IMG/VR virus record: IMGVR_UViG_2687453466_000005
Length of the DNA: 14,169 nt
Strand: one strand, 5' to 3'
From: a virus
Taxonomy: Duplodnaviria; Heunggongvirae; Uroviricota; Caudoviricetes
Positions 8,946 through 13,241 of the stretch are shown piece after piece (the first letter of the stretch is position 1; the number at the start of each line of letters is the position of its first letter). Below the pieces are notes generated by a model that searched no databases, was not told where the DNA came from, and saw nothing but the letters and a program-made list of their open reading frames with translations. The position numbers were made by a program, and so were the translations under genes.

Positions 8946-9284
8946 CTATTTCCCTGAATTTACGACGAAACTGTTCGAGCGGGCTGAAGCATTCATGCTC
9001 ATAACCTTCGCGGAGGTAGATAACCCGTTGTGTTTCCGGCTCCCAACGAATGACTCTGACGGGCACTCCGTAGTGATCTTTGAACCAGCGGTTAACTTGT
9101 CGCAAAGGACTGTCTCCTTCTGCCGGTTGAAATCACCCACAGCCCACTCTGCAAAGCTGTGGGTTACAATTTCCCTGTCACCTGGTACATTCACTGCATA
9201 GCAATATTCCACCTTCGCTTTTCCACCCGGTACAGGAAGCGCAATCAGTTGCGAGCGACGGTAGTGTGTTGTTAAACTGTTCAT
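8946..9284 (-). CDS. ymfM: YmfM, reported SOS-inducible cell-division inhibitor of e14
   Basis: 112-aa ATG-initiated ORF; start overlaps the ymfL stop (ATGA), indicating translational coupling. Confidence 0.7.
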
Positions 9285-9850
9285 GCGTTAGTTTCTCCAC
9301 AACCAGAAGCAATCGACGCCACGACGCCCGGAGCTGCACACTCGCGGGCGTCATTACTTTCTGAAATGCAAAAAATTTTGTAGACAAGTGCTGCATGCTC
9401 CTGCAGCTTCGAAATTGAGAGATACAGCTCGTCGTTAATTGCTGTCTTCTCATGCGGTTCCACTACACCGTCTTCGATTGCTGAACGAATCTGTTTTGAA
9501 TAACTGCCGATCTGTTCAATGACTTCCAGCAGACGCTGGTTAATATCGGCGTTGTCCACATCCTCGACGTCAGGAAGAGACACAAAGACGCCATTTGCAG
9601 ACTGCGCCACAGCATCAGCAATGAAGTGAGTGCCACCAGCACGCTGTAAAACCATTGCCCATCCCAGCGGGAAAATCTGATCGCCATCTGCACGAAGGCG
9701 GTTGAATAAAGCGTTTTCTGTTACATCGAGCCAGTCAGCCGCTTCAGCGTAACCACTCGGCAACGCCGCGATAGTTTTTCTGACAGCTTTCACGTACCAC
9801 TCAGGCTGTTTTTCTATTTTCCAGTGATGCTTACCCACGATTAGCCTCAT
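9281..9850 (-). CDS. ymfL: YmfL, phage CII-like regulatory protein
   Basis: 189-aa ATG-initiated ORF immediately downstream of croE in the early leftward operon. Confidence 0.7.
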
Positions 9851-9881
9851 CGTTCTGTGGTTAAAAATTGAAAGTGTTCTG

Positions 9882-10082
9882 CTAATCTTTCGGATAGATA
9901 TCCGGTCTTAAGTCAGATTTCGTAATTGCACCTGATGTGTATTGCTCAAGTTTTTTAGCCAGCACAAAACTGGCTTTTTTATAGCCATTGAAAACCAGCC
10001 GTAAGTAGCCAGGTGTTGAGCCAACTTTTCCGGCCAACTCGCCCTGCTGTTCTTTGGTTAAAGAGTCCCAATACGCTTTCAT
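9882..10082 (-). CDS. croE: Cro-like HTH repressor CroE
   Basis: 66-aa product MKAYWDSLTKEQQGELAGKVGSTPGYLRLVFNGYKKASFVLAKKL... from the internal ATG preceded by GGAGG about 10 nt upstream; divergent from cohE. Confidence 0.7.
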   Translation of the reverse strand: MKAYWDSLTKEQQGELAGKVGSTPGYLRLVFNGYKKASFVLAKKLEQYTSGAITKSDLRPDIYPKD

Positions 10083-10085
10083 ACA

Positions 10086-10157
10086 ATATGTACCTCCGGT
10101 GTACATATTACATGATTGAAATGAACCTTCAAGATACTTGTACCTTAACGGTACAAG
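10086..10157. promoter_or_regulatory. Divergent cohE/croE promoter-operator region with two GTAC-core palindromes
   Basis: ATATGTAC-N7-GTACATAT (about 10086-10108, overlapping the croE RBS) and CTTGTACC-TTAAC-GGTACAAG (about 10137-10157, 16 bp upstream of the cohE ATG); candidate -10 TTTAAT just upstream of the cohE start suggests a short or leaderless cohE mRNA. Confidence 0.45.
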
Positions 10158-10172
10158 GGTTTTAATTTCGTT

Positions 10173-10847
10173 ATGAAAACAATCCATGACATCCGGCGGT
10201 CTAACGCCAGAAAACTGAGAGATGGTGTTGGCGGGAATTCTTCCTTTGCCACTATGATTGATCGCGAGCCAACCCAGACCAGCAGGTTTATGGGAGATGG
10301 TGCTACTAAAAATATCGGTGACAGCATGGCACGACACATCGAAAAATGTTTCGACCTGCCTGTAGGATGGCTCGATCAAGAACACCAGACAACGAACATC
10401 ACAAAAAAACCTGATGTTTCAATCACTAATAAACAAATCACATTAGTCCCTGTCATATCATGGGTACAGGCCGGAGCATGGAAAGAAGTTGGATATTCTG
10501 AGGTTGATTTGAGCACAGCAGAAACGTATCCCTGCCCTGTACCCTGTGGGGAAATGACTTATATCTTGCGGGTAATAGGTGATTCAATGATTGATGAGTA
10601 CCGCCCGGGAGACATGATTTTTGTCGATCCTGAAGTACCTGCCTGCCACGGTGACGACGTTATTGCATTGATGCACGATACAGGTGAAACCACCTTCAAA
10701 AGGTTGATAGAAGATGGGACACAGCGTTATCTCAAAGCGTTAAACCCAAACTGGCCTGAGCCTTACATTAAGATCAACGGTAATTGCTCTATAATTGGTA
10801 CTGTGATTTTCTCAGGAAAACCAAGAAGATACAAAATCAAAGCCTAA
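10173..10847 (+). CDS. cohE: CI-like prophage repressor CohE (HTH N-terminus, LexA/S24 autopeptidase C-terminus)
   Basis: 224-aa ORF; contains a candidate Ala-Gly cleavage site (VQAGAW), the Ser nucleophile motif GDSM and the Lys motif FKRL typical of LexA/CI self-cleaving repressors. Confidence 0.85.
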   Translation: MKTIHDIRRSNARKLRDGVGGNSSFATMIDREPTQTSRFMGDGATKNIGDSMARHIEKCFDLPVGWLDQEHQTTNITKKPDVSITNKQITLVPVISWVQAGAWKEVGYSEVDLSTAETYPCPVPCGEMTYILRVIGDSMIDEYRPGDMIFVDPEVPACHGDDVIALMHDTGETTFKRLIEDGTQRYLKALNPNWPEPYIKINGNCSIIGTVIFSGKPRRYKIKA

Positions 10848-10861
10848 TCAATGTTTATGAA

Positions 10862-10882
10862 CCTGCTTCGGCAGGTTTTTTT
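10862..10882 (+). terminator. Rho-independent terminator after cohE
   Basis: CCTGC-TTCG-GCAGG hairpin followed by a run of seven T, 15 nt after the cohE stop. Confidence 0.7.
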
Positions 10883-10886
10883 ATAC

Positions 10887-10915
10887 TTGACAATGTACCT
10901 TTGAGATACATAATG
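10887..10915 (+). promoter_or_regulatory. Candidate sigma70 promoter for ymfJ, carrying two direct ATGTACC motifs
   Basis: TTGACA at 10887-10892, CATAAT/ATAATG about 16-17 bp downstream; the spacer and -10 contain ATGTACC twice, the same core as the cohE/croE palindromes. Confidence 0.45.
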
Positions 10916-11021
10916 TACCCAAGAGAAACAACAAACAGGCAGGACGCCCACGAAGTAGCCCGCCCGGTACGTACGAAGACCGGGATGATTCGTTAGCGGA
11001 TGATTTCAGTGGAGAGAATAG

Positions 11022-11330
11022 ATGAATGAGCAGAATTTGAAGCATGTGATCGCATTGTTGCTGGAAGACGCTAAACGTTTGCAGCAGATAGAGCCAAATG
11101 CAGGCACTGAGGCCCGCATTTTGTTAGCAAAACAGGCATTAAAGACTTGCGGGGCGCAAGCCCCTGGTCGAACCGAGTTCATGAATTTCATGGCTAACAC
11201 ACTCACCCCTCTGCCATGCAATGGAGAGAAGGTGAGCCGTGTTTATCACGACACAATGGTTAAGGCTTTAAGAATCGAGCTTGATGGGCTTAGGCGTAAG
11301 ATCGTAATGAACGAAATCGTTACCAACTAA
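11022..11330 (+). CDS. ymfJ: Uncharacterised protein YmfJ
   Basis: 102-aa ATG-initiated ORF with GGAGAG RBS; its 3' end overlaps the 3' end of convergent ymfI by about 63 nt. Confidence 0.7.
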   Translation: MNEQNLKHVIALLLEDAKRLQQIEPNAGTEARILLAKQALKTCGAQAPGRTEFMNFMANTLTPLPCNGEKVSRVYHDTMVKALRIELDGLRRKIVMNEIVTN

Positions 11331-11609
11331 GGAAGCAGACGGAAGTAAGCATGCGCTTTGTTCAAATTTACAGACAAATATATTTGCGTCAACACCGGCA
11401 CTGTTAGCAATTGAAAATGTTTGATCAAGGATTTGTTGGCAGTTCATTGTACTTTTGAGGATATATCCCTCTGGAATCAGTCTGCAGCAGCTATCGTCAG
11501 ACTCTTTAACTGTTTTCTGGTACAGAAAGTTAAGCATTAATTCTTCAAATTTTTTGGTCTGTTCGGCTGTGTCTTCAAATAGACGAACGTGAACATAAAA
11601 CTGGTTCAT
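11268..11609 (-). CDS. ymfI: Uncharacterised protein YmfI
   Basis: 113-aa product from the internal ATG (MNQFYVHVRLFED...) preceded by AAGGAAA about 7 nt upstream; the track ORF extends 15 codons further 5'. Confidence 0.65.
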   Translation of the reverse strand: MNQFYVHVRLFEDTAEQTKKFEELMLNFLYQKTVKESDDSCCRLIPEGYILKSTMNCQQILDQTFSIANSAGVDANIFVCKFEQSACLLPSASLVGNDFVHYDLTPKPIKLDS

Positions 11610-12073: not shown

Positions 12074-12319
12074 ATGCTTCAAATGTTAACTCTTGAAGAA
12101 TGGGCTGCTGAAAAATACAGAAGTAATCCTCCAAGTGTGTCCACATTGCGTCGTTATGCTAAGCAGAATTTATTTTGTCCACCGGCCATGAAACAAGGCC
12201 GGTTATGGCGAGTGCGTGAGGACGCCGAGTTAGTTGGGGAGTTGGTAACACCTGTAATCAAGAAAAATGACTCATTACTTTTGCAACGGATTTTGAGTAA
12301 TGGCAGCCAGACCGCGTAA
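12074..12319 (+). CDS. xisE: Excisionase XisE (small HTH DNA-binding protein)
   Basis: 81-aa ORF with AAGGTGA RBS; overlaps the intE start by 20 nt. Confidence 0.75.
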   Translation: MLQMLTLEEWAAEKYRSNPPSVSTLRRYAKQNLFCPPAMKQGRLWRVREDAELVGELVTPVIKKNDSLLLQRILSNGSQTA

Positions 12320-13241
12320 GAATAATGTTTCAGTCCCTAACTTATATCCGCTTTATAGTAGGAAGGTAAATAAAGTCTATTGGCGGTATAAGCATCCAGT
12401 GACAGGAAAATTCCATGCTTTGGGAACAAACGAAGCTGAAGCTATCGCTATTGCCACTGAGGCCAACACTCGCCTGGCTGAACAAAGAACCCGGCAGATT
12501 CTGGCTATCAGTGACAGGATCGCAACCAGCAAAGGAAAGGCTATCACAACGTCAACCTGGTTAGATCGCTATCAAGCGATCCAGGATGACAGGCTTAAAA
12601 GTGGTGATATAAGACTCAACACCTATAAACAAAAAGCTAAACCAGTATCCTTGCTCAGAGAACGAGCAGGAATGAAGTTGATCTCAGCCGTTGATGTCAG
12701 AGATATAGCACAATTGCTTGATGAGTATATCGCCGCTGGGCGGCCAAGAATGGCACAAGTAGTTCGCTCCGTCCTGATTGATGTTTTCAAAGAGGCGCAG
12801 CACTACGGAGAAGTACCTCCTGGCTATAACCCAGCATTAGCCACTAAACAACCAAGAAGAAAAATTACCCGACAACGGCTGAGCCTTGAAGAATGGAAAA
12901 AAATCTTCGATATCGCAGACGCTACTCATCGTTACATGGGAAATGCCATGCTGTTAGCGCTGGTTACTGGTCAGCGGTTAGGTGATATTTCGCGTATGAA
13001 ATTTAGCGATATTTGGGATGATCATCTTCATGTCATTCAGGAAAAGACCGGGAGCAAAATCGCAATTCCTCTTTCTCTTCGCCTCAATGCGATTAACTGG
13101 AGTTTACGCGATGTAGTAGCCCGCTGCCGTGACTATGCAGTCAGTGCATACTTAGTGCATTTTTTTCGTTCAACTTCACAAGCAGAGCGCGGAGCGCAGG
13201 TTAAAGCCAATACATTGACGATGAATTTTGATAAAAACTAA
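12300..13241 (+). CDS. intE: Lambda-family tyrosine integrase IntE, apparently C-terminally truncated (313 aa; ends before the box II HxxR / His / Tyr catalytic motifs)
   Basis: N-terminal and core-binding regions plus the box I Arg (LVTGQRLGD) and the Lys (QEKTGSKIAIP) are present, but the ORF stops 64 aa after that Lys; all three forward frames have stops within about 55 nt downstream. Confidence 0.75.
   Translation: MAARPRKNNVSVPNLYPLYSRKVNKVYWRYKHPVTGKFHALGTNEAEAIAIATEANTRLAEQRTRQILAISDRIATSKGKAITTSTWLDRYQAIQDDRLKSGDIRLNTYKQKAKPVSLLRERAGMKLISAVDVRDIAQLLDEYIAAGRPRMAQVVRSVLIDVFKEAQHYGEVPPGYNPALATKQPRRKITRQRLSLEEWKKIFDIADATHRYMGNAMLLALVTGQRLGDISRMKFSDIWDDHLHVIQEKTGSKIAIPLSLRLNAINWSLRDVVARCRDYAVSAYLVHFFRSTSQAERGAQVKANTLTMNFDKN

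Follow-up and report, generated by a model that had tools for sequence, protein, structure and literature searches.

What kind of regulatory switch lies between the divergent genes croE and cohE, and by which route is it thrown when DNA is damaged? The question is raised by a stretch of 14,169 nucleotides from a Caudoviricetes virus record, IMGVR_UViG_2687453466_000005 (the whole stretch is referred to below as the window), whose positions 9800-11400 are 100% identical to the e14 prophage of Escherichia coli K-12 MG1655. Two genes diverge there from a gap of 90 bp (10083-10172):

9882-10082, minus strand: croE (ymfT), encoding a 66-aa Cro-like helix-turn-helix (HTH) protein, assigned from its translation, from PHROG and from a weak Pfam match
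10173-10847, plus strand: cohE (ymfK), encoding a 224-aa repressor that consists of a predicted HTH domain (residues 1-70), a linker and a Peptidase_S24 domain

Based on the sites, promoters and proteins described below, we consider it highly probable that the region is a lambda-style immunity (lysis-lysogeny) switch of an e14/SfV-type lambdoid prophage. Such a switch is textbook in kind and largely annotated already, its genes bearing the names cohE and croE; no new principle is involved, the genome that carries this lambdoid immunity module is the best-annotated bacterial one, and the practical value is modest. What is added here is an explicit definition of the operator sites, a degenerate third site (O2), a downstream pair (OL1 and OL2), the conservation of the arrangement across genera, and a link to a mapped leaderless transcription start.

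A family of 17-bp sites at two promoter regions

A first-pass annotation of the window, made from the letters alone, had pointed to two GTAC-core palindromes in the croE-cohE gap, to a recurring ATGTACC in a promoter-like element after cohE, and to Ala-Gly, Ser and Lys motifs in CohE. Every sequence feature that it listed is present and correctly placed. Palindrome 1 joins ATATGTAC (10086-10093) and GTACATAT (10101-10108) across seven nucleotides, and palindrome 2 joins CTTGTACC (10137-10144) and GGTACAAG (10150-10157) across five, ending 15 nt before the cohE ATG. The two have a common geometry, TGTAC-N7-GTACA, and fall under one family consensus of 17 bp, TGTACC-N5-(G)RTACA. The downstream ATGTACC copies (10893-10899 and 10913-10919) both lie within a 19-nt direct repeat, AATGTACCnnnGAGAwACA, with a spacing of 20 bp. 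This repeat amounts to two more imperfect copies of the 17-bp site, of which ATGTACC forms the strong left halves. With the degenerate third site, which the first-pass annotation had missed together with the equal geometry of the palindromes, five sites are recognized (scores are from the weight matrix described below):

10089-10105, plus strand: O1, TGTACCTCCGGTGTACA, 19.7 bits, located at -84/-85 from the repressor ATG in most of the 15 loci compared
10122-10138, plus strand: O2, TGAACCTTCAAGATACT, the degenerate third site, 11.7 bits, overlapping the predicted croE -35
10139-10155, plus strand: O3, TGTACCTTAACGGTACA, a perfect palindrome, 21.8 bits, located at -34/-35, with a spacer that is fully variable among loci
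10894-10910, plus strand: OL1, TGTACCTTTGAGATACA, the best matrix match in the window, 25.0 bits, with a spacer that is variable among loci
10914-10930, plus strand: OL2, TGTACCCAAGAGAAACA, 18.1 bits, covering the predicted start and lying 20 bp centre to centre from OL1

Frequent recurrence of the motif in unrelated sequence had been named by the first-pass annotation as a result that would count against its proposal. Instead, near-exact matches were found only at the two promoter regions, far above the level of shuffled sequence. When at most one mismatch was allowed, TGTAC-N7-GTACA matched three times in the 14-kb window, as compared to 0.35 matches expected, and all three are at the switch promoters. 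The longer form TGTACC-N5-RRTACA, searched at the same tolerance over 19.6 kb that took in all of e14 and its flanks, matched only O1, O3, OL1 and OL2; its count of 7 strand-hits compares with 0.22 expected and was reached in none of 200 shuffles. A weight matrix was also trained on 37 sites taken from non-E. coli loci only and then scanned over the window. Its top five matches were OL1, O3, O1, OL2 and O2, in that order, and the mean best score in Markov shuffles was 7.3 (sd 3.3). Next in the ranking after the five sites is an operator-like match inside cohE, TGTACCCTGTGGGGAAA (10538-10554, 9.9 bits), which is probably coding-constrained rather than bound, because the stretch encodes a conserved PVPCG motif.

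The comparison across genera covered 15 loci, from E. coli, SfV, Pantoea, Klebsiella, Rahnella, Serratia (two loci), Yersinia, Sodalis, Symbiopectobacterium, Providencia, Rosenbergiella, Salinicola, Morganella and one Enterobacterales lineage, or about 12 genera. At least five close relatives came from a contig scan, and ten more loci were obtained from nine homologues by exact-protein look-up; the scan of viral contigs returned near-identical E. coli prophages only and was used for polymorphism only. Relative to the repressor ATG, the weaker third site recurs at -51/-52, alongside the O1 and O3 positions listed above, and two distant relatives deviate from the O1 and O3 offsets by up to 3 nt. 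Information content is about 1.5-2 bits per position in the half-sites and below about 0.5 bit in the five central positions of the spacer. Conservation does not extend to the outer portions of the 8-bp arms (ATAT...ATAT and CT...AG), which leaves TGTACC...(G)RTACA as the functional core. The proposal of GTAC-core palindromes therefore stands as to a single operator family held at fixed offsets in about 12 genera, and falls as to the outer portions of the arms. Of the 15 loci, 13 retain TG(A/T)ACC as the left half of O2, and this half matches TGTACC exactly in Providencia, Salinicola and Morganella. The left half of OL2 is retained in closer relatives and lost in distant ones.

Variation within E. 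coli is confined in a similar manner. Among 80 E. coli prophage copies, it falls in the spacers, in the flanks and at position 13 of O1, which is ambiguous (G/A). The intergenic regions of e14 and SfV differ at 6 positions, five of them outside the half-sites, and the sixth is that same position 13. Palindrome 1 occurs as two common alleles, of which one is perfectly symmetrical; the other has ATACA as its right half and is carried by SfV, by phage Ayreon and by about one third of the distinct upstream variants that were compared within E. coli. The O1 spacer includes the croE Shine-Dalgarno sequence (GGAGG, minus strand, 10093-10097), and the conserved spacer TCC is its other-strand reading. 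It should be noted that positions 10096-10099 of this spacer read CCGG in K-12, an HpaII-type site that is recognized, when methylated, by e14's own McrA. The site is not conserved among relatives, and its presence in the O1 spacer is probably coincidental.

Palindromes of this kind could also be hairpins acting as terminators or attenuators, or could be chance matches, rather than protein-binding sites. The consensus scan does list 10137-10157 with its T-rich tail as terminator-like. The cohE start at 10173, however, lies downstream of this hairpin, and the predicted croE transcript (from about 10098) reads away from it. Moreover, departures from the consensus in one arm are never compensated in the other, and covariation does not rise above the level of shuffles. 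Because the arms are conserved as sequence and without compensatory change, we read the sites as protein sites and not as hairpins; the absence of arm covariation and the position of the mapped cohE start 3' of the hairpin led us to reject the terminator reading. Chance is countered by match counts far above expectation. Between them, hairpins and chance retain next to no probability in our estimate.

Homologues of CroE accompany those of CohE. CroE has a weak Pfam match to YdaS_toxin/HTH_3 and a PHROG transcriptional repressor match (7e-14), which suggest a YdaS/Cro-type HTH, and its homologues (35-71% identity) stand opposite the repressor gene in 11/11 loci from which a divergent open reading frame (ORF) was extracted. 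No cro-like divergent ORF was found in the Morganella or Serratia marcescens loci, although the operator sites are kept in both. Co-occurrence cannot separate CohE sites from CroE sites, since both genes travel together.

Promoters and the layout of the switch

The fixed point for the promoter assignments is a published differential RNA sequencing (dRNA-seq) study by Romero et al. 2014, in which ymfK is among five leaderless E. coli mRNAs, with its start at the A of the ATG (10173) and a leader of 0 nt (PMC4681348). The promoters, the terminator and the adjoining genes are as follows:

10138-10173, plus strand: cohE promoter (PRM analogue), with -35 TTGTAC (10138-10143), a 17-nt spacer and -10 TTTAAT (10161-10166); hexamers placed from the dRNA-seq start
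10105-10132, minus strand: predicted croE promoter (PR analogue), with -35 TTGAAG (10132..10127), a 16-nt spacer and -10 TAATAT (10110..10105); read from the sequence
10887-10914, plus strand: PL-like promoter, with TTGACA (10887-10892), a 16-nt spacer and CATAAT (10909-10914), 11/12 consensus matches; heads ymfJ and the xisE-intE side
10859-10885, plus strand: Rho-independent terminator of cohE, from the consensus scan; a terminator is also annotated in the SfV and Ayreon records
11022-11330, plus strand: ymfJ, the first gene 3' of the PL-like promoter, by RefSeq annotation
9281-9838, minus strand: ymfL, second in the croE operon and encoding a CII-like regulator (Pfam Phage_CP76, 8.9e-13; PHROG 'CII-like transcriptional activator', 1.3e-69; RefSeq annotation)

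Because the published start is at the cohE ATG, the implied cohE -35 falls within O3. The leaderless start thus supports the autoregulation of cohE that had been proposed from the position of palindrome 2 upstream of the gene. Relative to this start, O3 occupies -34 to -18 (centre -26), and the centres of O2 and O1 are at -43 and -76, respectively. A TnTAAT hexamer located 6-7 nt before the repressor ATG is conserved in relatives. On the other strand, the predicted croE start at about 10098 would have O1 covering approximately -8 to +10, overlapping the -10 and the start, and O2 covering the -35; the position of this promoter and its TTG and TAATAT-CATAAT elements are conserved in relatives.

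A second operator set downstream of cohE, as the first-pass annotation had suggested, was also recovered. OL1 fills the spacer of the PL-like promoter, its right half running into the -10 CATAAT, and OL2 lies over the predicted start. Among the 15 loci, 13 have OL1, and the same number contain the entire block of terminator hairpin, TTGACA, one base, OL1 (into CATAAT), TAA and OL2. The terminator hairpin is retained in relatives with stem sequences that differ. By the RefSeq annotation of MG1655, the genes beyond ymfJ are ymfI, ymfH, xisE, intE and lit, and the block has the topology of lambda PL/OL, pointing the same way as cI, toward xis and int. The earlier assignment of the promoter to ymfJ is therefore kept in part. 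The promoter would drive ymfJ, yet not ymfJ alone, as it appears to be a PL analogue that heads the series from ymfJ to the xisE-intE side, a role that the first-pass annotation did not give it.

Taken together, these features support the following scheme. A CohE dimer would bind the 17-bp TGTACC-N5-(G)RTACA sites. At O1 and O2 it would repress croE, ymfL, ymfM and the genes beyond, and from O2, at -43, it might stimulate the weak, leaderless cohE promoter. Occupancy of O3, over the cohE -35, would provide negative autoregulation, and occupancy of OL1 and OL2 would repress ymfJ and the excision side, the PL-like promoter probably serving xisE-intE as well. Upon DNA damage, RecA filaments would prompt CohE to cut itself at Ala100-Gly101 by means of Ser138 and Lys176; this cut would separate the DNA-binding domain from the oligomerization domain and free both promoters, after which CroE could bind the same sites and shut off cohE. 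Within the scheme, we infer which protein binds which site, the order of affinities, the activating role of O2, where the croE and ymfJ transcripts start, and the cleavage itself. The centre spacings of 33 bp between O1 and O2 (in phase) and of 20 bp between OL1 and OL2 are compatible with cooperative binding through a lambda-like C-terminal domain.

CohE and the route of SOS induction

CohE had been described in the first-pass annotation as a LexA-like self-cleaving repressor, and homology agrees with that description. Residues 93-212 match Peptidase_S24 (PF00717) with an E value of 1.5e-26 and 92.8 bits, against a cut-off of 23.3. The closest solved relative is the C-terminal domain of lambda CI (E 2e-9 by sequence; in Foldseek, 3bdn_A at 3e-8 and 1f39_A with a TM score of 0.74), followed by LexA and UmuD. 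In a BLASTP comparison, whose alignment agrees with the PDB matches, CohE and CI are 35% identical in the S24 C-terminal domain. The putative scissile site of CohE, PVISWVQA100-G101AW (Ala100-Gly101 at 10470-10475), aligns with lambda PVFSHVQA-GMF. The catalytic Ser138 (GDSM 10578-10589, codon 10584-10586) aligns with lambda Ser149 (GNSM), and the catalytic Lys176 (FKRL; KRL 10698-10706, codon 10698-10700) with lambda Lys192 (FKKL). Among 23 CohE homologues, Ser138 and Lys176 are each at least 90% conserved, and the Ala-Gly pair is present in most, with few exceptions. CohE would accordingly undergo RecA-stimulated self-cleavage at Ala100-Gly101, for which the induction of e14 genes by DNA damage, and its lateness, give indirect support. 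A second GDSM, at residues 49-52 (10317-10328), is non-catalytic and coincidental, and homologues carry GDDL or GDAM at this place.

Residues 1-70, which were classified by structure prediction and fold search, were confidently modelled as a four-helix HTH with a predicted local distance difference test (pLDDT) score of 80-90, and PHROG transcriptional-repressor families match residues 1-74. Homologues of CohE (43-90% identity) occur across Enterobacterales and also in Halomonadaceae and Salinivibrio, with high conservation of the N-terminal domain, where R31, T34, Q35, S37 and R38 of the predicted recognition helix are invariant. The N-terminal domain of CohE is also 35-36% identical to that of the Rep protein of Salmonella phage SPC32H (PDB 5d50), with a root-mean-square deviation of 2.8 Å over 78 columns. 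SPC32H Rep is a tetramer that is inactivated by the antirepressor Ant, which raises the alternative that CohE binds its operators but is inactivated by an antirepressor, in the style of Gifsy and SPC32H, and not by RecA-stimulated self-cleavage; in some related loci, ANT/pRha genes are indeed found downstream of cro. The likeness to Rep, however, is confined to the N-terminal ~78 residues, and the rest of CohE is S24-like, a complete domain in which the Ser, the Lys and the Ala-Gly pair are aligned to lambda CI and in which the catalytic residues are conserved across the 23 homologues. The ANT-like genes of the relatives lie within the cro operon and would hence themselves be under repressor control, and no ANT homologue was seen among the e14 genes scanned with Pfam and PHROG. 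We give little credence to inactivation by an antirepressor and favor self-cleavage.

Several points weigh against the switch as we have drawn it. For CohE and CroE, the literature searched yielded neither binding, footprint or chromatin immunoprecipitation (ChIP) data nor a cleavage assay, and in Pfam the N-terminal domain of CohE (residues 1-70, 10173-10382) matches nothing even at E ≤ 10. The predicted croE promoter has 8/12 consensus matches, which is under the threshold of the consensus scan, and its start is predicted from the sequence. O2 is weak, with three mismatches to the consensus, and some of its conserved bases fall in the predicted croE -35, such that their conservation could in part be that of a promoter and not of an operator. 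With their centres 17 bp apart, O2 and O3 abut, which is unlike lambda and may preclude simultaneous occupancy. The best palindrome is O3, the autorepressing site, whereas its lambda counterpart, OR3, is weak, and the lambda analogy may thus fail in detail. Lastly, a 2024 study found that e14 induction needs LexA cleavage, which it ascribed to weak LexA boxes (PMC11228462).

This last point belongs to a conflict between published accounts of the SOS induction of e14, one of which invokes weak LexA boxes (PMC11228462) and the other a CI-like repressor (PMC11002266). That e14 responds to damage is clear from either: azidothymidine (AZT) induces 17/22 e14 genes, by 36-fold on average (PMC11228462), and ymfJ, ymfM and intE are induced late, at ~50 min, as compared to ~10 min for LexA targets (PMC11002266). 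ymfJ is among the transcripts most strongly induced by damage, and in a dam mutant it heads the list of up-regulated transcripts. If host LexA directly repressed the early genes of e14 at weak boxes, the GTAC palindromes would have no role in SOS induction. In favor of direct repression, lexA3 abolishes the response of 17 e14 genes to AZT, and 13 weak LexA boxes are predicted in e14 (PMC11228462). In addition, an exact CTGT-N8-ACAG core, CTGTTTTCTGGTACAG (11510-11525), lies inside ymfI and upstream of ymfH by ~200 bp; the window has no other exact match, and this one might be among the cited 'weak LexA boxes'. The switch promoters themselves give a different result, as no CTGT-N8-ACAG core with one mismatch or fewer was found in the regions 10083-10172 and 10880-10930. 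Because neither switch promoter contains a LexA-box core, we favor the repressor route.

Other observations point in the same direction. The e14 genes lie off the relation between heterology index and induction (PMC11002266), and late induction is what would be expected of a CI-type repressor that cleaves slowly. The Keio collection scores cohE, as a prophage repressor, among the essential genes (PMC5992433), an indication that the toxic genes are silenced by CohE rather than by LexA. The operator family and the CohE family are also conserved together across genera. The dependence on LexA would be compatible with CohE only if the effect of LexA were indirect, for instance through RecA amplification. 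Phage lambda behaves likewise in lexA(Ind-) hosts, where the dependence of induction on LexA is indirect, and for slowly cleaving CI-type repressors in general an indirect dependence of this kind on lexA3 is expected. Direct repression by LexA is, in our judgment, quite unlikely, and repression by CohE is preferred.

A more specific proposal, which we put forward tentatively and with more doubt than conviction, is that e14 induction runs wholly through the five CohE operators, with the LexA dependence indirect, instead of through weak LexA boxes plus SspA, and that the right operator does not work in the manner of lambda. In this arrangement, O2 and O3 would abut on nearly opposite faces of the helix, O1 and O2 would bind cooperatively, and O3 would be mutually exclusive or independent, which would replace alternate pairwise cooperativity.

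Relation to known systems and neighboring sequence

The comparison with lambda shows extensive agreement in layout. Lambda has divergent cI and cro genes, three 17-bp right-operator sites, a leaderless cI mRNA and a CII-like gene after cro, as does e14. In both, the cro -10, the cro -35 (about -42/-43 relative to the start of cI) and the cI promoter are each overlapped by one site, and CI at lambda OR2 activates PRM from a position matching that of e14 O2 (-43). Lambda likewise carries a second operator cluster at its leftward promoter, past cI toward xis/int, and its CI has the same cleavage and catalytic residues as CohE in the S24 C-terminal domain. The sequences and the fine geometry are different. 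Lambda operators are of the TATCACCGCCAGTGGTA type, to which TGTACC-N5-GGTACA of e14 is unrelated in sequence, and their centre spacings are 24 and 23 bp as compared to 33 and 17 bp in e14. Only two left operators were detected in e14, and the autorepressing site, the best palindrome in e14, is the weakest in lambda. The N-terminal domain of lambda CI has no detectable sequence similarity to that of CohE, and no N or nut analogue was identified in e14. LexA and UmuD share the S24 fold, the Ser-Lys dyad and the Ala-Gly scissile bond with CohE. LexA, however, has a winged-helix domain and binds CTGT-N8-ACAG, whereas CohE has a predicted four-helix Cro/CI-type HTH and its sites have outer TGT and ACA elements 11 bp apart, rather than 8.

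The immunity region of Shigella phage SfV is 98% identical to that of e14, and in the SfV GenBank record the equivalent of window positions 10088-10156 is labelled 'putative operator region', with a terminator marked after cI. Because that record already annotates the same region, the reading given in the first-pass annotation is not new, although it made no mention of the SfV annotation. The record of phage Ayreon annotates a promoter after cI. More broadly, the block of cro, operator, cI, terminator and promoter is 95-99% identical at the DNA level to e14 in SfV, SfIV, Ayreon, the cdtI phage and Stx2c-converting phages. In the Stx2c-converting phage LC727876.1 (1740-2581), for instance, the same cI-cro module has 95% identity and all five operator sites; the cdtI phage also carries the module. 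O1 of SfV and Ayreon has ATACA as its right half where K-12 e14 has GTACA and hence a perfect palindrome, and the spacer bases differ. e14 is defective, unlike phages of the SfV/Ayreon type, and the records of those phages are without individual 17-bp sites or the OL pair. Mehta, Casjens and Krishnaswamy (2004) reportedly identified repressor and Cro sites of e14 by similarity to SfV.

What the analysis offers is a consensus for the operators, with the explicit coordinates of each; the repressor family concerned would also control the serotype-converting phages SfV and SfIV, the CDT-I phage and Stx2c-converting phages. As the module is found in Stx2c-converting and cdtI phages, the CohE family would control the induction of toxin phages. 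The sites also bear on the disputed mechanism of e14 SOS induction, in that the switch promoters hold CohE-type sites and no LexA box.

Several minor observations concern the sequence next to the switch and elsewhere in the window. A mosaic breakpoint lies at about 10930-10997, just past OL2, where the homology of K-12 e14 to other E. coli prophages stops, the exact point depending on the lineage. Because the breakpoint falls so shortly after OL2, the operator-promoter block moves with the repressor gene, with ymfJ being exchangeable. The predicted 5' leader of ymfJ (10921-11030) contains the direct repeat GGATGATT twice (10983-10990 and 10998-11005), and its folding is no better than that of shuffles (z = -0.97). 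No Rfam family reached its gathering score anywhere in the window. Near position 13229, at the 3' end of intE and the intE-lit spacer, 241 bp of the MG1655 record (12431-12671) are absent from the window, and the intE ORF is therefore shortened to 313 aa (12300-13241) from 375 aa. The best-matching E. coli genomes all require two aligned pieces across this junction. Finally, window positions 3483-5321, the tail-fibre/tfa region beside pinE, are inverted relative to NZ_CP032667.1, which fits a Pin-invertible P segment present in its other orientation.

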